From positions 1 through 64,000 of IMG/VR virus record IMGVR_UViG_3300044846_001842: DNA of 64,000 nucleotides; one strand, written 5' to 3'. This document shows positions 51,458 through 58,119 of the stretch, piece after piece. This DNA comes from a virus. Below the pieces are notes generated by a model that was given only the letters and a program-made list of their open reading frames with translations, searched no databases and was not told where the DNA came from. How positions within the stretch are numbered: position 1 is the stretch's first letter; each line of letters starts with the position of its first letter. Position numbers and translations under genes: made by a program.

Positions 51458-52147
51458 TTATTTTTCTAGTTCAGCTCTTTCAGCTTCTAAGTCTCTGTTT
51501 TGAGCAGCTTCATTAGTAAATTTTTCCGGGTATCTTACTTTCAACTTATCAATGTTATTAGTAAGTAATTGGAAAAAGTCTAACTCATAAAACTGAGCAA
51601 TATTTGCTAAGACAGCTAGTTGTACAATAGGAGCATTAAACATGTTGTTAGTTGGACCACAATAAGTCATCAAAATAACAGTTAATAATGCTTCAGATTT
51701 TAATTCTAAAGGAAGTTCAGCTTCAGTAAACATACCTTCTTTAATTATTGTACTTATCTCTGCAACAACTGTATCAAAGTTATCATCAAGAGGTACTTCA
51801 TGAAATCTACATTTGTTTACAATGTACCAAGCTGTGTCAGCAAGTTCTTCTCCTAAGTTGACAATGTCAATAGGTTTTTGATAGGCTAAGAATTTCTTGA
51901 AGATATCAAGAGTCTCTCCAATTTCAGTCACAACACCTAAATTCATGTGTCTTTCATTTAGGTCTGGAGTTCCTAAATCTGGGCAGGTTCTGGCTGCAAG
52001 TCCTTGATATTCAAGGATAGTTTCAATTTTACTCATTCTTTTTGTTTTGGTTAAAAATTCTGTCATTTTCATTCCTGAAATAAAAGGCTTGTCAAAGATA
52101 GGAATAAAATTCTTCTTAAACAGAGCCTTTTCCCATTCCGGATTCAT
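51458..52147 (-). CDS. MazG-like nucleotide pyrophosphohydrolase
   Basis: GVVTEIGETLDIFKK..GEELADTAWY..NIDKLKVRYP motifs. Confidence 0.8.
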   Translation of the reverse strand: MNPEWEKALFKKNFIPIFDKPFISGMKMTEFLTKTKRMSKIETILEYQGLAARTCPDLGTPDLNERHMNLGVVTEIGETLDIFKKFLAYQKPIDIVNLGEELADTAWYIVNKCRFHEVPLDDNFDTVVAEISTIIKEGMFTEAELPLELKSEALLTVILMTYCGPTNNMFNAPIVQLAVLANIAQFYELDFFQLLTNNIDKLKVRYPEKFTNEAAQNRDLEAERAELEK

Positions 52148-53241
52148 TATTTATCAAGTCTAAAACCTACACATACAGGAAATCTTGGGATGCCACCATC
52201 TGTGTACTCAAAGAATCTAACCTCTGCCATCTTACCAATGTAATTCTGCTTGTTAGCTAAGATCTCTTCTCTTTCAGCATGACTAAATTTCATACCACAG
52301 TTAAAGTTTTGGACCCAAACATTGTCTCCTGCTTGTTCCATTTTCTTAGAACAAACTACAACACCTTGTTCAGGTCTACTTTCAGAAGGAACTACATCAA
52401 CTACTTGATAAACTTCATCTAAGAAATCTTTGTATTTTAGTAATTGAGAACTTCTCTTGTTTACAGCATACCCTTCTTCAGAGTGTCTCACCATAGTGCC
52501 TTCATATCCTTGAGCAATAAATCTCTGATGAAAGTCTATGATTTCTTCCTGGGAATTTACAATCCAAGTAGGTACAATCTCAATGTTAGGATTATCTAGA
52601 TTTCTAAGTAAGTTATATAATATAGCATGTCTTTCTTCAAAAGGAGCATCCATAACTATATCATAGACATGATATTTAACCTGCTCTGTAAGATGAGGTC
52701 TGTATTTCTTGATTAGTTTCATATTCTCTTGGAAAGAGATGCCATGGGCATATAACTCTCCATCTAAAACCACATCTTCAAGATCTGCCAACACTATATG
52801 ACCAAGAGTATCTATAGCCTTTCCTGTTCTTGACATAAACCCATCATCTTCAGAACCTAAAGATCTCATACCATCTAGCTTAGGTTGTACATAACAAGGA
52901 AATGTAACTTTCTTCACTTCCTTCTTAAAATCCTTAGCTAGCATTGGTAATAAGAAATCCTTACCTCCTTTTTCTTGAGCTTCTTCTATACTATTGAAGT
53001 AACCTAATCTCATCTTTTCAGTAAGTTTAGCTTGAGCTTCAATTAAGGCTTGTGATTCAGGTGTAGTAGCATTGCTTTTACCTACATTCTTTGCTTCACA
53101 AGCACTTCTGTTAATCACTGGGTTATTGGTACCAACTACCCCTGATTCTTGCACTACAAAGTGCCCTTCATTACTTATCTCTAAGTATCTGATTTTTCCT
53201 GATGAATCTTTCTTGTAGATTCTTTTACAAAGTATTGCCAT
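52147..53241 (-). CDS. ATP-dependent DNA ligase
   Basis: QPKLDGMR (motif I), LDGELY, YHVYD, YEGTMVR, LLKYK, PRFP. Confidence 0.95.
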   Translation of the reverse strand: MAILCKRIYKKDSSGKIRYLEISNEGHFVVQESGVVGTNNPVINRSACEAKNVGKSNATTPESQALIEAQAKLTEKMRLGYFNSIEEAQEKGGKDFLLPMLAKDFKKEVKKVTFPCYVQPKLDGMRSLGSEDDGFMSRTGKAIDTLGHIVLADLEDVVLDGELYAHGISFQENMKLIKKYRPHLTEQVKYHVYDIVMDAPFEERHAILYNLLRNLDNPNIEIVPTWIVNSQEEIIDFHQRFIAQGYEGTMVRHSEEGYAVNKRSSQLLKYKDFLDEVYQVVDVVPSESRPEQGVVVCSKKMEQAGDNVWVQNFNCGMKFSHAEREEILANKQNYIGKMAEVRFFEYTDGGIPRFPVCVGFRLDK

Positions 53242-53449
53242 ATTGATGAATATAAAGAGGAAGTCTTTCCTCTGTTTTGTGAAGATCTACTATCATCCAT
53301 TGGCATTGACTTTCTTTAAAAGTTTGACCATGTTCTGAATAGTGTTCAGTTAAAAAATGCTCACCACTTTCCCAAATATTAGGGTCATAGGAAAAAATAT
53401 GGACTTCCTGTGTAGAGAAGTCCATAATAATTATCTTCTGATTAACCAT
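53225..53449 (-). CDS. Hypothetical protein
   Basis: 74-aa ORF with TAATG coupling. Confidence 0.5.
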   Translation of the reverse strand: MVNQKIIIMDFSTQEVHIFSYDPNIWESGEHFLTEHYSEHGQTFKESQCQWMIVDLHKTEERLPLYIHQYGNTL

Positions 53450-53736
53450 TACTCTAACCCAATAATATCAAGATAGTGTACAATAGTCAAAGCAGTAACT
53501 GGGTCTTTTTGGTCTTTAGGAGAAGTTACATTCATCCCATTAAAAGTTACATGATTTTGAAAGATAGGTGCTTTACCCACTTCTATTCCATGTGCTTCAG
53601 GAACCATAGGCCCAATTTCTTTGATTTCAAAAGTGGTTGTGTAACCATCTTTTTCATTCTTGCCTGGCAAGATTACAAAACTTTTCTTTTTAGTGTCTGT
53701 TTGTTGCACTAATACATATTCCCCTGTTACTTTCAT
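53449..53736 (-). CDS. GroES/Cpn10-like co-chaperonin
   Basis: 95 aa; MKVTGEYVLV..VILP..IKEIGP..IEVGKAPIF..IVHYLDIIG follows the Cpn10 pattern. Confidence 0.6.
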   Translation of the reverse strand: MKVTGEYVLVQQTDTKKKSFVILPGKNEKDGYTTTFEIKEIGPMVPEAHGIEVGKAPIFQNHVTFNGMNVTSPKDQKDPVTALTIVHYLDIIGLE

Positions 53737-54050
53737 TACTTTAATTGTTTACCTTCAACATTTCTTTTAATTCTGTCTGCAGTTCTTTTATTTAACCATA
53801 AAAGAGCTTCATCAAGCTTTGTAATAGCAATGGCATTTTCTCTACAAGGAAATTTAGATTGCAAAAAGTTTAATCTATTTAATAAAACTTCTAAAAGTTC
53901 TTCATTAGTAGTACCATCAACAATAGTTTCTAATTCAGTAGAACCTTCTTCTTTTGGCTCTTTATGAATAAATTGTAAAAGCTGACCTGGATTTTCTTTG
54001 TTTTCAAAATTGGACAATTCATATTGATGCCCTGGAACATTTACTTTCAT
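53736..54050 (-). CDS. tad1: Tad1-family cyclic-nucleotide sponge (anti-Thoeris/anti-CBASS)
   Basis: GTTNEELL..L..RL..FPCRENAIAITKLDEALLWLNKRT..R..RNVEG closely matches the Tad1 C-terminal signature. Confidence 0.85.
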   Translation of the reverse strand: MKVNVPGHQYELSNFENKENPGQLLQFIHKEPKEEGSTELETIVDGTTNEELLEVLLNRLNFLQSKFPCRENAIAITKLDEALLWLNKRTADRIKRNVEGKQLK

Positions 54051-54073
54051 AGGATTTTAAATTTATTTGTTTA

Positions 54074-54081
54074 CAAATATA
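54074..54081 (-). promoter_or_regulatory. -7 element (TATATTTG) upstream of tad1
   Basis: CAAATATA on the + strand, in the 47-nt intergenic gap. Confidence 0.6.
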
Positions 54082-54097
54082 AAGAAAAATATTTACA

Positions 54098-54949
54098 CTA
54101 AAAAATGTATCTAATTGTTTCTAAGGGAAAATACTTAGAATATAGTTCTTTAAATTGTTGAATTAAACTGTTTTTGAATTGCCATTGGTATCTAATATTA
54201 TCAGCAGCATACTGAGAGTTTTTAGACTCTTGAATTGTAGGTTGCCAAAGGTAATAGTTAACATCAGCTTTATTCCTTGAAAATTGATTTACATTATAAG
54301 TCATAAATATACATTCTGACTTAAAATCAATGCCTTGTAGTTGTTTAAATAATTCCTCATAGTCTTCTAACCAAGTAGGATAGTAAACTATAGGACTGAA
54401 ATTTATATGCACTTCCATTTTTGTTTGAAGTATAGGTATCATAGCAATTCTATCAGCTATGCTGTCAGTATTGGGTTCTAAGATACTTGATATAAATTGG
54501 GGCATAAGACTTACTCTTATTCTATGCTTACCCGGAGTCAAGTTATACTTTTGTAGCTTAAACTTTGTTGGGTATTTGGTGGCAAAAGTTGTTTTCAGTT
54601 TGTATTGTGTATTGAAGAAATCAAATACCTGTTGCCAATTATAGTGTTTACTATGTAAAGGCACATCAGTACTACATCCTATATCAACACAATAATAAGT
54701 GTCATCTACTTGATTAGGTTCTTTGGGCCAAGGCTTAGTGTCTACCCAGTCATAAATAGATCTTAGAATTTGCTCTGTGTTTTCATTGATATAAACCTTG
54801 TCATGATTATACCTACCTACATAGCAATTATGAGTAAGAATGTTATTAGCAAAGTAATTTTCATTATCTTTTACAGCAAAGTTATAAAAAATTTTGCTAT
54901 TTTTGTTGTCTAAAATCTTACTGATTCTCGTAATTTTTAATTTTCTCAT
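54098..54949 (-). CDS. C-half of split gene: Int-C (41 aa) plus C-extein of a spore-photoproduct-lyase-like radical SAM protein
   Basis: Intein blocks F/G FYNFAVKDNENYFANNILTHN|C, then SPL-like KEPNQVD..VDIGCSTD, FATKY, RIRVSLMPQ..LEP, HINFSPIV. Confidence 0.88.
   Translation of the reverse strand: MRKLKITRISKILDNKNSKIFYNFAVKDNENYFANNILTHNCYVGRYNHDKVYINENTEQILRSIYDWVDTKPWPKEPNQVDDTYYCVDIGCSTDVPLHSKHYNWQQVFDFFNTQYKLKTTFATKYPTKFKLQKYNLTPGKHRIRVSLMPQFISSILEPNTDSIADRIAMIPILQTKMEVHINFSPIVYYPTWLEDYEELFKQLQGIDFKSECIFMTYNVNQFSRNKADVNYYLWQPTIQESKNSQYAADNIRYQWQFKNSLIQQFKELYSKYFPLETIRYIF
54827..54949 (-). mobile_element. Split intein C-fragment (Int-C)
   Basis: Has its own ATG, ends His-Asn, followed by Cys+1 (54824-54826). 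Confidence 0.9.
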
Positions 54950-54950
54950 T

Positions 54951-55781
54951 ATGTTAATTTTTTACTCTCACATTGAAGCAGGAAAACATTTTAAATGTGA
55001 TCCAAGGACTGCAAAAAACAATCTACTCAATACCCAATACGTTATTGACAAATCTTCAGAGTATAACCCTAATACTTTATTTAGAACCTGTAAAAAATGT
55101 GAAAATAAATACACTTCTTCTAAAGGTAGGGCAGGATACTGTCCTAGTTGTAAAAATAAAATTTCTAAAAAAATATTAAATAGAGTTTGTAAAATCTGTA
55201 GTATTACTGCAACTAATATCAACCCTGTGTCTTTAAAATCTTGTATTTGTAAAAAATGTTCTCAGACAGGGATAGGAAGAAAGCTTCAAGCAATTTTTAT
55301 TTCAAATTTACAAACAGGTGTAAACAACTCTAATTTTGTACATGGTAATTCTACAATAAAAATATGGCAAAACAGTAGATGGGTAAAACTAAGAAAGAAT
55401 TACCCAAATAAAGTTTGTTTAAAATGTGGTAAAACAACTAATATACATTTACATCACATAATTCCTCAATGTTTATTACCTCATGAAGAAAAGTTTAACT
55501 TAGATAATATAATACCTTTATGTTCTAATCATCACAAAGAACTTCATCATCTTCAGTTAGATATTGTGCTTCTACCCAGCCTTTACCTACAATATAAAAA
55601 GGATGCTCAGCAGTTACAACAATTTTTTTACCTTCAACCTCAATTTCAATCCATGAGTTTGACTCCCTTGAAAAAATATGATGACATTTCTTTGGTTCAA
55701 CTAACTCCAAAGAATTATTATAAGATAATACAAAAGTGTCATCCTGAATTTTTTCAACAGGAATTTGCCCATTTGGTGTAG
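54951..55781 (+). CDS. HNH homing endonuclease, antisense to the split-intein gene
   Basis: NUMOD1-like start, CxxC pairs, GVNNSNFVHG, HNH core CLKCG..HLHHIIP..LDNIIPLCSNHHKELH; ATG at 54951 is likelier than TTG at 54894; TATTTTTG at 54898-54905 upstream. Confidence 0.85.
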   Translation: MLIFYSHIEAGKHFKCDPRTAKNNLLNTQYVIDKSSEYNPNTLFRTCKKCENKYTSSKGRAGYCPSCKNKISKKILNRVCKICSITATNINPVSLKSCICKKCSQTGIGRKLQAIFISNLQTGVNNSNFVHGNSTIKIWQNSRWVKLRKNYPNKVCLKCGKTTNIHLHHIIPQCLLPHEEKFNLDNIIPLCSNHHKELHHLQLDIVLLPSLYLQYKKDAQQLQQFFYLQPQFQSMSLTPLKKYDDISLVQLTPKNYYKIIQKCHPEFFQQEFAHLV

Positions 55782-55923
55782 AAATTAGTGTGCCTTTTTC
55801 TACACAATATGATTTCATACACCCTCCTAAACAGCCATAAATAAAATTAGGAGAAATAGCATCACTGCTTCTCCCATTATCTCTAGTTACTAGGGTTTTA
55901 GTCTTTTGTTTCTTGATTTCCAT
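55525..55923 (-). CDS. N-half of split gene: 39-aa N-extein of SPL-like radical SAM protein plus Int-N (93 aa)
   Basis: RDNGRSSDAISPNFIYGCLGGCMKSY, then intein block A CVEKGTLISTPNG, block B VTAEHPF, GWVEAQYL..DEVL, stop. Confidence 0.88.
   Translation of the reverse strand: MEIKKQKTKTLVTRDNGRSSDAISPNFIYGCLGGCMKSYCVEKGTLISTPNGQIPVEKIQDDTFVLSYNNSLELVEPKKCHHIFSRESNSWIEIEVEGKKIVVTAEHPFYIVGKGWVEAQYLTEDDEVLCDD
55528..55806 (-). mobile_element. Split intein N-fragment (Int-N)
   Basis: Cys1 at 55804-55806, TxxH block B, acidic end, TAG stop at 55525-55527. Confidence 0.9.
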
Positions 55924-56143
55924 TAGGTAAATAAATTGCTATAATTTGTTTATAAGCTTTATCATAATCAAAAGGTAAAAGACTAGTCCATGTTTCAAAG
56001 TCTACTGTAATATTAGGTTGAATACTATTTCCAGACTCTACTACAGTTAAAGTAAAAGAATAATCTAGATTGTTATGATTATAAATTCCTTTATAAAAAA
56101 TGTGTTTTGCAAAAGGTTGTCTTTCAAGATTTACTTGTGTCAT
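55898..56143 (-). CDS. Hypothetical protein
   Basis: 81-aa ORF within the operon. Confidence 0.5.
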   Translation of the reverse strand: MTQVNLERQPFAKHIFYKGIYNHNNLDYSFTLTVVESGNSIQPNITVDFETWTSLLPFDYDKAYKQIIAIYLPNGNQETKD

Positions 56144-56161
56144 CTTTAATTTGTTTTAAGG

Positions 56162-56347
56162 TTATTCATCTATTCCTACTAAATCACAAATATCATTGTA
56201 AGCTAACTGAACTTCATGAGCTTCTGAGCCACCTTCTTCTACCTCATCTTGACAAAGAGAGATAAAAGACCAAATTTCATCTTTGTGTTTGGGGTGTTCT
56301 TTTGCAACATTCCTTGCCCACTGCACTAATTGCTCTAAATTAGTCAT
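56162..56347 (-). CDS. Hypothetical protein
   Basis: 61-aa helical ORF within the operon. Confidence 0.5.
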   Translation of the reverse strand: MTNLEQLVQWARNVAKEHPKHKDEIWSFISLCQDEVEEGGSEAHEVQLAYNDICDLVGIDE

Positions 56348-56576
56348 CTTCTTGAGCTGAGTCTATAACATTAAACATGCCTGTAACAATTTTGTCCTTA
56401 TCTTCAAATTTGTAAAACTCTCCAAAGTCAGTGTCATCTAACCCTCTATCAATAGCTGCTCTATCTCTAGAACTAACCTCAGGGCAAGGAATTTGTTTCT
56501 GAGTCTTAGTTGTTTTATCATATTCATTCATAATACACTCTATAGTAAGGCTTTTAATTTTAATTTTTTGATTCAT
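56340..56576 (-). CDS. Hypothetical protein
   Basis: 78-aa ORF within the operon. Confidence 0.5.
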   Translation of the reverse strand: MNQKIKIKSLTIECIMNEYDKTTKTQKQIPCPEVSSRDRAAIDRGLDDTDFGEFYKFEDKDKIVTGMFNVIDSAQEDD

Positions 56577-56578
56577 TT

Positions 56579-56962
56579 TTAGTAATTATTAATTTTTTCT
56601 TTAATACTTGCCTCACATAAGATTAGATAGTTTATCAAATCTCCTATTTTTTCATCTACTACTTCTTGTTCAGGAAGCTTCCCTTGTTCTATATCATTCA
56701 GTATATCTAAGAATGATACATAGTGCTTAACTGCAAAACCCCAAAGAGCTTTCTCTTCAGTAGTGTTTTGCACTTTAGCAGCTATCCTAAAATTGTGTAG
56801 AGGGTCATTGTCTCTTCTGTACTCTTTCCCTTTTTCTACAAGAGTCCTCTTGATTATCATACATCTTGTATCTACAAGAGTGTCAAATTGAGTTTCACTT
56901 AGCTTATTATAAATTACTGATTTAGGCTTTTCTTCCATACCAAATATTTTGAAGTTTAACAA
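56579..56962 (-). CDS. DUF1599 / nucleotide-modification-associated helical protein
   Basis: EKGKEY..DPLHNF..KH..DEKIGDLINYLIL; start may be the ATG ending at 56938. Confidence 0.6.
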   Translation of the reverse strand: MLNFKIFGMEEKPKSVIYNKLSETQFDTLVDTRCMIIKRTLVEKGKEYRRDNDPLHNFRIAAKVQNTTEEKALWGFAVKHYVSFLDILNDIEQGKLPEQEVVDEKIGDLINYLILCEASIKEKINNY

Positions 56963-57233
56963 TTAACTTTTGCCACCATTTGAGAGCTATTCTCCCAAGA
57001 GCTTTGTAAGAAGGTTTTTGAAGTTCTTCTGGGGTAAATGCTACACAAAGAGCTTCTCTAACCCATTTAGGCTTAAATTGCTCACTTGCATAGTTTTCCC
57101 ATCTAAGTAAAAGATAGATGTTTTTACCTCTTTTTTCAACAGCCATAACCCTAGCAGGGTTAGAGTTGTTTTTGTAGAGAACATAGACTTTTTCTTCACT
57201 AAGGCTGTTTTTTTCTTTTTTAAAATTCCACAT
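56922..57233 (-). CDS. Hypothetical protein
   Basis: 103-aa ORF within the operon. Confidence 0.45.
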   Translation of the reverse strand: MWNFKKEKNSLSEEKVYVLYKNNSNPARVMAVEKRGKNIYLLLRWENYASEQFKPKWVREALCVAFTPEELQKPSYKALGRIALKWWQKLIVKLQNIWYGRKA

Positions 57234-57441
57234 ATTCTACATTTTGAGATTGCAACTCTGCAATTAATATAGAATCTTCTACTGAAATAGCTGGTGTCTC
57301 ATCTAGAATAGTTTCTAAATTGTAACTACATTCTTCATCATTAGGATTTACCATAGAAGGAGAAATATTTTTCTTTATCCAAGCTTTAAAAGAAGGAGTA
57401 AAGTCAGGCTGAAAAGCTGTAATAATTAATGTGTGTGCCAT
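57220..57441 (-). CDS. Hypothetical protein
   Basis: 73-aa ORF within the operon. Confidence 0.5.
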   Translation of the reverse strand: MAHTLIITAFQPDFTPSFKAWIKKNISPSMVNPNDEECSYNLETILDETPAISVEDSILIAELQSQNVEYVEF

Positions 57442-57471
57442 CTGATTAAAATTAATGAAAGCTAAGGGGGA

Positions 57472-58119
57472 TCACTCCCCCAAAGGCTTCCAAGTGTTAA
57501 AAAATTCTTCTTCTTTATTAGGAGGAAGATCATATTCCCAAGAACCTTGTAAAAAATCTTGTTCTTCTAACTGAACATTAAATACTTCTTTAACTAAAAG
57601 TTTAAACTGCTCTTTAGCAAATAGTGTTTTAAACAATACATGTCTAGCAGTAGCTTTATTTTCATCTCCAAAAAAAAGATTAATTTCATTCTTGGTGTAC
57701 ATTAAACTATACTTACCCAATAAAAATTTATCATAGACATCAGCTAATTCAGGTGGAAAGGCTAATACTATCATTTGTTTTCTACTGTTGTGCTCAAGAA
57801 TTGAGTCATAAGCATAATCTGTGACATAATATTCTTGATGTTTTACCCAATCCATAAAGTTTTGGAATAAATCAGGTCTTACAAGTTTGTCTACAAGAAT
57901 AAAAATATTCTTTTGACCTTCTAAATGAGTACCTTCTAACAAAGAATCATGTATGCCAAAGGCTAACTTAAAGACCAAGTTTAACTTGGTCTTCAAAGTA
58001 GGCCCATAGAAATTAAGAGCAGGAACTAAGTACTTAACGGTTCTGTTTACATACAATTTTCCTAACTCAATTTCTATACCTGTTTTTACAATTTTAGACA
58101 ATACCATCCCATGATACAA
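57472..58119 (-). CDS. Conserved hypothetical protein following the RecE-like nuclease
   Basis: 215 aa; YDKFLLGKYS motif. Confidence 0.5.
   Translation of the reverse strand: MYHGMVLSKIVKTGIEIELGKLYVNRTVKYLVPALNFYGPTLKTKLNLVFKLAFGIHDSLLEGTHLEGQKNIFILVDKLVRPDLFQNFMDWVKHQEYYVTDYAYDSILEHNSRKQMIVLAFPPELADVYDKFLLGKYSLMYTKNEINLFFGDENKATARHVLFKTLFAKEQFKLLVKEVFNVQLEEQDFLQGSWEYDLPPNKEEEFFNTWKPLGE

Follow-up and report, generated by a model that had tools for sequence, protein, structure and literature searches.

A putative mobile split-intein element with an antisense, overlapping HNH gene in a phage SPL-family radical-SAM gene

How might a phage enzyme remain in use when its gene is broken directly before the codon of an iron–sulfur (Fe-S) cluster cysteine, and when a nuclease gene on the opposite strand occupies the break? 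This question is raised by positions 54,098 to 55,923 of a viral stretch of 64,000 nucleotides (nt), positions 1 to 64,000 of IMG/VR record IMGVR_UViG_3300044846_001842, which at its full length is called the window here. An earlier note, made from the sequence alone, had described at this place a radical S-adenosylmethionine (SAM) gene of the spore photoproduct lyase (SPL) type, fractured by a split intein around an inverted HNH gene. Our analysis suggests that the locus probably carries a 980-nt mobile split-intein element, with an antisense and overlapping HNH gene, in a phage SPL-family radical-SAM gene. The overlap between the HNH gene and the N-terminal half of the intein (Int-N), which had been missed in that note, is the most unusual feature of the locus. 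The parts of the element, including the C-terminal intein half (Int-C), are as follows.

55807..55923, minus strand: N-extein, 39 codons of the SPL-family radical-SAM gene, ending ..GCLGGCMKSY and holding cluster cysteines 1 and 2
55525..55806, minus strand: Int-N, 93 codons plus stop codon, CVEKGTLI...TAEHPFY...GWVEAQYLTEDDEVLCDD, with Hint/intein matches
54951..55781, plus strand: putative HNH endonuclease gene, 831 nt, 276 codons plus stop, with PHROG HNH matches
55525..55781, both strands: putative dual-coding stretch, 257 nt, read as Int-N codons 9–93 plus stop on the minus strand and as HNH codons ~192–276 plus stop on the plus strand
54827..54949, minus strand: Int-C, 41 codons, MRKLKITRISK...NENYFANNILTHN, with an intein C-terminal block match
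54098..54826, minus strand: C-extein, 242 codons plus stop, beginning at Cys+1, the third cluster cysteine, CYVGRYNHDK...
54827..55806, both strands: the whole insert, putatively mobile, 980 nt that are coding throughout, made up of Int-N, the antisense HNH gene and Int-C

The two open reading frames (ORFs) that the earlier note gave for the fractured gene stand at the same coordinates and lengths. One (55923–55525) encodes a product of 132 amino acids (aa), which runs from MEIK...GCLGGCMKSY straight into Int-N and ends at a stop codon at 55525–55527. The other starts at the Int-C ATG at 54949, so that the two halves are separate ORFs, and extends to 54098, encoding a 283-aa product in which Int-C leads directly into the C-extein. 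A search with this C-half returned 883 relatives, most of them 279–283 aa long. Among them, P0002 and P0003 are intein-free proteins of 281 aa that are 98% identical over exactly the C-extein. The window N-extein is identical in 39 of 39 residues to the N-terminus of P0002, and both proteins read ..GCLGGCMKSYCYVARYNHDKVY.. without a gap across the junction (..GCLGGCMKSY-CYV.., alignment A1; here and below a hyphen marks the point of insertion). Because these 281-aa homologues align across the junction, the insert is defined as 54827–55806, just before the third cluster cysteine. Alignment with intein-free homologues had been proposed as a check in the earlier note, and it bears out the predicted 281-aa product and its ..MKSY-CYVGR.. 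junction. Moreover, all 38 intein-free alleles found in IMG/VR have the flanks IYGCLGGCM(K/x)SY-CYVGR, with IYGCLGGCMKSY-CYVGR invariant. The insertion point is thus a target of high conservation, as a homing site should be. Several further IMG/VR loci (L016–L018, L035, L036 and L038) had been candidates for bearing Int-C and were rejected: the two that were checked, L018 and L035, are intein-free, and the extra match is a chance-aligned N-extein.

Filled and empty sites co-occur in lake metagenomes, and this presence/absence polymorphism among close alleles is what homing predicts. In run X2, an independent lake sample, exact contigs extend across the Int-C/HNH start, the Int-N stop and the N-extein/intein junction; diverged variant contigs span the same junctions in run X3. 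In one X3 contig, only 7 letters stand between 54828 and 55816, so that 987 nt are skipped and a net 980-nt empty site results. This joint is a single shallow contig, weak alone, and is consistent with the empty alleles seen at the protein level. In X1, in X3 and in the RNA run X21, loose contig ends at 55804 continue as CYVGRF.. or CFVGRY.., and thus belong to intein-free alleles; X21 contains only intein-free relatives and extein pieces and is uninformative on transcription of the element. The same contigs speak to the idea that the layout is an assembly artefact, or that the insert is an intron spliced out of the RNA. The window is indeed a metagenome-assembled viral contig. Yet exact or variant contigs from independent samples cover all four junctions, the layout recurs at about 50 loci sampled in many studies, and both intein halves are in frame with their exteins. 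An Rfam scan of the locus at E <= 1 gave no family match, and so no intron model. The probability of this explanation is close to nil, and misassembly, which the earlier note had named as a possible refutation, did not hold given the independent lake assemblies across the junctions.

The interrupted gene appears to encode an SPL-family radical-SAM-type enzyme, not a photoproduct lyase. Residues 40–282 of the C-half match the SPL family PF20903 (38 bits against a cut-off of 27), and the intein-free homologue matches the solved SPL structure, PDB 4fhc, at 2.8e-5. The best NCBIfam model for intein-free P0002 is TIGR03886 ("SPL family protein"), with 193.5 bits against a cut-off of 437.55; the true SPL model, TIGR04070, gives 48.7 bits against 400. 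It is because the first score lies far under the equivalog cut-off, and because the second is only 49 bits, that we do not use the name photoproduct lyase. The cluster motif of the window protein is C31-X3-C35-X4-C40 (CX3CX4C), which departs from the canonical CX3CX2C; HMMER places a two-residue gap in SPL 4fhc opposite it, corresponding to a 2-residue insertion. The intein site lies directly before the codon of the third cluster cysteine, and the first two cysteines are in the N-extein. The CX3CX4C spacing is also kept in the aligned intein-free phage members of the same lineage (lineage A, defined below) among the 883 relatives.

The insert encodes the two halves of a class-1 intein in which all of the splicing residues are intact, namely Cys1, the TAEH of block B, the terminal HN and Cys+1. 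Cys1 and the block B TxxH (VTAEHPFY) are residues C40, T104 and H107 of the first ORF, invariant among the 17 sequences of alignment A3. The C-terminal end reads ..ILTHN-CYVGR, where H40, N41 and C42 are invariant and residues N29–N41 nearly so (alignment A4). Int-N, residues 40–132 of the 132-aa product, matches Pfam PT-HINT (4.7e-6) and Intein_splicing (2.5e-4), as well as the intein-like domain 2lwy in the PDB (1.9e-7). Among characterised split inteins it matches only NrdJ-1, and that weakly (8ubs, 1.4e-3). Int-C, residues 6–41 of the 283-aa product, matches the C-terminal intein block (8.3e-4), and the Int-C of a second host-gene lineage (lineage B) exceeds the TIGR01443 cut-off (23.8 against 15.6). 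The charge pattern that the earlier note had pointed out is present, with an acidic end of Int-N (EDDEVLCDD) and a basic start of Int-C (MRKLKITRISK). When Int-N (residues 30–132) and residues 1–60 of the C-half, each given as an alignment, were modeled together, the prediction was a complex with a canonical Hint interface, in which the acidic Int-N end (127–128) lies against Int-C residues 4–6. The complex scored 0.80, against 0.22 for the best control; the mark for this score is reached by 58 of 80 solved complexes and by 2 of 110 mismatched pairs. Partner pLDDT (the predicted local distance difference test) did not fall below 68, and 83% or more of the contacts were common to the runs. Since split-intein complexes have already been solved, the score reflects likeness rather than binding, and the model's success may in part be a matter of likeness to those structures. 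Because the pair is distant from gp41-1, NrdJ-1 and DnaE, with only the weak NrdJ-1 match to a characterised system, Int-N (93 aa) and Int-C (41 aa) are a plausible candidate for an orthogonal split intein with a Cys+1 junction.

The same element is found well beyond the window. With Int-N as the query we found 13 viral loci (L041–L053, 45–47% identity), and with an alignment of HNH proteins 38 metagenome loci (L059–L096). The layout, in which N-extein plus Int-N and Int-C plus C-extein enclose an antisense HNH ORF, occupies the same site of an SPL-family gene in 13 of 13 viral and 35 of 38 metagenome loci, judged over the part that each contig covers; in L069, L079 and L081 the script picked up no HNH ORF. 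In total, about 50 viral and metagenomic loci from many studies have this layout, and they fall into two host-gene lineages. Lineage A consists of the window, L059, L060 and L061 (CX3CX4C). Lineage B has the junction GCLYNCTY-CYMKRH and, like the bacterial proteins, keeps the canonical CX3CX2C. Between the two lineages identity is ~43–46% in the exteins and 46% in Int-N. More distant split C-halves occur in P0055, P0056, P0057, P0061 and P0117 (61–67% identity). The window HNH protein alone had no match when searched against the viral contig collection, nor did the HNH alignment against the genome contig collection.

Related forms without this nuclease gene suggest how the element may have arisen. 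A Chthonomonadaceae chromosome contig from a metagenome-assembled genome (MAG; L099:2030-3721) encodes a full-length SPL-family protein with a contiguous mini-intein of ~135 aa at the same site, 47% identical and with ..GCSLACSY-C..THN-CYVGR junctions, and has no nuclease gene. The split point of the window intein aligns with the ..LCD-TLTYKAISS.. loop of this protein; in effect, its ..EDDEVLCD-TLTYKAISSIRLV.. loop is the position where the window intein is broken and the HNH gene sits. The contiguous mini-intein is likely an ancestral or derived state of the element, and a series from empty site to mini-intein to mini-intein split by an inverted HNH gene is plausible. In bacteria, our genome scans found only this contiguous form and an orphan N-half. 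Another form, L054:3092-5960, is a fractured DnaE (Pol III alpha) gene of the classical, same-strand kind, whose Int-N is 32% identical and shares the GWVEAQYLTEDDE end. Its intervening ORF is a zinc-finger protein whose C-terminus is Vsr-like (..EFDGDYWHGN..), and another Hint-like segment follows downstream in the same ORF. Taken together, the exact excision, the intact splicing residues, the ~50 loci, the L099 mini-intein and the complex model bear out the earlier note's reading of a fractured gene with a split intein.

The comparison of loci also bears on whether the gene still works as proposed. The insertion of the HNH gene might have destroyed a mini-intein, with the enzyme lost, or the two halves might function unspliced, as those of phage Aeh1 NrdA do. 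Decay does happen, as shown by a second Chthonomonadaceae MAG (L100:2102-2866) with only the N-extein and Int-N half, ending ..TEDDEVLCFS and a stop, and with no C-half nearby. Either this orphan has decayed, or it belongs to a split gene with its C-half elsewhere; it is followed by unrelated genes, including an MreB-like gene. In the exteins of intein-bearing alleles, by contrast, diversity at the three codon positions is ~0.2, 0.17 and 0.46. This is a purifying pattern, and it indicates that the fractured genes are in use. Exteins and splicing residues are both under purifying selection in the ~50 diverged intein-bearing loci, and the predicted complex has a canonical Hint interface. Non-covalent assembly is unlikely because the break parts the third cluster cysteine from the first two, and 134 intein residues would be wedged into the Fe-S site. 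Thus, a dead relic or a pair of halves working unspliced is very improbable, and a functional split intein is much the better account.

The nuclease gene itself lies on the opposite strand, as the earlier note said. It is not confined to the 575-nt gap between the halves, to which that note assigned it: its ORF is 831 nt long and runs 257 nt antisense into Int-N (272–275 nt in lineage B), covering nearly all of that half. In both lineages its stop is 25 nt from the first base of the intein. The protein consists of an N-terminal domain, CxxC zinc-ribbon repeats, an HNH core (~aa 140–200) and a tail of ~85 aa. It matches PHROG HNH families at ~4e-8 and has the catalytic motif (HLHHIIPQ..NIIPLC..NHHKELHH), in which H168, H169, H195, H199 and H200 are invariant; Pfam and PHROG profile searches gave no GIY-YIG or Vsr match. 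Thirteen full-length homologues of 273–290 aa are 49–95% identical over their full coverage, and 11 of these 13, called independently in other assemblies, use the start codon that corresponds to the ATG at 54951. This ATG is 1 nt from that of Int-C (CATtATG), and in lineage B the two start codons share the palindrome CATG. The tail is present in ~25 clusters at 50% identity. A pattern match suggests one possible promoter element:

54898..54905, plus strand: TATTTTTG, which may be a -7 box of the Bacteroidota type; it lies within the coding sequence of Int-C and 46 nt upstream of the HNH start codon

Does the overlap encode two proteins, or is one reading a by-product of the other? The third codon position of Int-N coincides with the second codon position of HNH, so a loss of synonymous variation in Int-N is what dual coding predicts. 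We resampled the Int-N codons synonymously from the codon usage of the window. The antisense frame across Int-N is open for 84 codons, against a shuffle mean of 32 (P = 0.004; 0.4% of shuffles reach 84), and the same test gave P = 0.001–0.01 at 13 lineage-B loci; synonymous shuffles close the frame after ~16–32 codons. At every locus with that end on its contig, the frame is open to the same end point, among lineages of 38–95% identity. Diversity by codon position points the same way. Among 24 distinct lineage-B elements (Mann-Whitney tests), third-position diversity of Int-N in the overlap is 0.051, compared with 0.35 in the first 8 Int-N codons (p = 2e-7), 0.165 in Int-C (p = 3e-6) and 0.225 in the HNH-only part (p = 1e-15). 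The fall occurs at intein codons 9–14, which is where the HNH ORF ends, and lineage A has the same pattern in 4 sequences. When the window is compared with five lineage-B loci, identical residues use the same codon in 75–81% of cases in the overlap and in 48–59% in the C-extein. Constraint from both strands is therefore visible in the overlap, and on these patterns we consider it probable that the stretch is truly dual-coding, with both readings under selection.

Several observations weigh against this account of the locus. The Pfam intein and HNH matches fall under their gathering scores (PT-HINT, 27.3 bits against 27.7; Intein_splicing, 21.3 and 19.6 bits against 35.8; HNH_2, 14.3 bits against 21), each intein half being a partial intein domain. 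The HNH fold has a mean pLDDT of 70, and a Foldseek search of the PDB gave no match at E <= 0.001, only weak HNH matches. A sigma-70 promoter scan for the HNH gene gave 18, not above the 13.8 of shuffles. The TAnnTTTG pattern of the Bacteroidota-type box is not enriched in the window (96 found against 97 expected), and this chance frequency leaves weak support for the TATTTTTG box. Codon identity is also raised in Int-C (64–74%), so that this measure alone is non-discriminating and part of the low diversity may reflect the younger age of the element. Codon phase gives only a weak signal within the overlap, where HNH position 3 is the most variable phase, at 0.090 against 0.051 for Int-N position 3 (p = 0.14). 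Finally, the tail is of low confidence (pLDDT 36–72) and has no recognisable domain, and the Int-N motif GWVEAQYLTEDDE is also conserved in the L054 DnaE split intein, which has no antisense gene, so some of the tail conservation may simply mirror Int-N.

These points give some room to a reading in which the HNH protein ends near residue ~200 and the other 75–85 codons are accidental antisense read-through of Int-N. Conservation of the tail would then mirror the selection that acts on Int-N, or reflect the young age of the element or a constraint at the nucleotide level, for instance pairing with antisense RNA. Other, more distant HNH relatives do cease matching near residue 200, and the unrecognisable fold of the tail, the L054 motif and the weak phase signal would all be expected. 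Selection on Int-N alone, however, leaves third positions free, and yet those of the overlap are 3–7 times less diverse than those of Int-C, the HNH-only part or the first 8 Int-N codons. The frame is open to the same end in lineages of 38–95% identity, whereas shuffles close it, and neither RNA pairing nor young age explains an open frame. We therefore consider accidental read-through unlikely, and true dual coding the better explanation.

How, then, would the element work? The host-gene strand would yield two polypeptides, N-extein plus Int-N (132 aa) and Int-C plus C-extein (283 aa), most likely translated from a single transcript that continues through the HNH gene in antisense. The acidic end of Int-N would pair with the basic start of Int-C, allowing the Hint fold to assemble. 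Protein trans-splicing would then ligate ..MKSY to CYVGR.. and give the 281-aa enzyme, creating its CX3CX4C cysteine motif. The host Fe-S motif is thus predicted to exist only after trans-splicing, and since splicing creates the motif, enzyme activity should depend on splicing. The opposite-strand gene most likely encodes a homing endonuclease, which during co-infection would cut intein-free alleles at ..GCLGGCMKSY-CYVGR..; repair would copy in the whole element. The HNH tail may serve in DNA binding.

The surroundings of the gene may be relevant to its expression. Within 51458–58119 of the window the HNH ORF is the only plus-strand gene, and every neighbouring gene is on the minus strand. These minus-strand genes follow one another with no spacers between them, in keeping with co-transcription. 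The Int-N half begins, at its ATG, within an upstream 81-aa ORF (56143–55898), the two sharing 26 nt (window 55898–55923). Directly downstream of the cluster of the fractured gene, at 51458–53241 on the minus strand, are a 364-aa ORF resembling ATP-dependent DNA ligases and a 229-aa ORF resembling MazG-type pyrophosphatases, both judged from translation only. The 80,106-bp viral record that includes the window has no second intact copy of the fractured gene. In phage databases the window has only a short 72% match, to Flavobacterium psychrophilum phages, and the sequencing runs that contain the stretch are mostly lake and freshwater metagenomes.

The arrangement may be relevant for several questions. 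First, ~85 codons read on both strands and conserved across deeply diverged lineages are rare in phages and bacteria, and antisense dual coding of this length bears on the linkage of homing endonucleases to inteins and on the resistance of selfish genes to decay. Second, it raises the tentative idea, to which we give less than even odds, that the antisense overlap is an adaptive interlock, tying the integrity of the nuclease gene to that of the intein and so to the Fe-S enzyme. If so, the deletions and frameshifts that normally erode fixed nuclease genes would also kill splicing, the degeneration phase of the homing cycle would be slowed, and the HNH tail would be a protein domain that arose de novo as the antisense counterpart of a Hint domain. 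Finally, the split intein is a possible tool, for which many natural variants are available for comparison.

It is useful to contrast the locus with systems already described. Inteins are not new to the host family, since 48 actinobacterial inteins are on record for SplB (COG1533; Novikova et al. 2016, PMC4760082) and the NCBIfam model NF038136 is named "intein-containing Rv2578c family radical SAM". The earlier note had called a radical-SAM host with an antisense HNH gene unfamiliar; this remains true of the split form with its antisense gene and not of the host family, in which contiguous inteins are known. The SplB/Rv2578c inteins and L099 share the host superfamily with the window, and L099 the identical site. 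Unlike the window intein, they are single cis-splicing polypeptides, and L099 lacks a nuclease gene. A literature search whose full-text coverage was incomplete returned nothing relevant on split inteins with nuclease genes on the opposite strand or in antisense overlap. Another comparison is with phage Aeh1, in which mobE, an HNH gene, interrupts nrdA (Friedrich et al. 2007; Gibb & Edgell 2007, as cited in PMC2677866). As far as that citing account goes, a free-standing homing-type HNH gene divides a phage enzyme gene into two genes there as well, whereas mobE is on the same strand, no intein is involved, and the NrdA halves assemble unligated.

The closest known systems are the fractured genes of Dassa et al. 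2009 (PMC2677866), in which three ORFs lie on one strand with 27–51 nt spacers and the nucleases are GIY-YIG or Vsr-like. Their hosts, described as genes of replication and nucleotide metabolism, are gp41, IMPDH, DnaE, NrdA, NrdJ, ligase, terminase and one unknown, and the authors predicted that HNH genes could fracture genes too. As in those genes (gp41-1, NrdJ-1, IMPDH-1), a conserved phage enzyme gene is split in place at the endonuclease-insertion loop, the halves are in their original order with the endonuclease gene between them, and an acidic Int-N end faces a basic Int-C start. Unlike them, the window has a nuclease of the HNH type on the opposite strand, with no spacer, with back-to-back start codons and with a 257-nt overlap into Int-N, in an SPL-family radical-SAM gene. 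Thus, the HNH nuclease type, the antisense orientation and the radical-SAM host are new for the fractured-gene arrangement.

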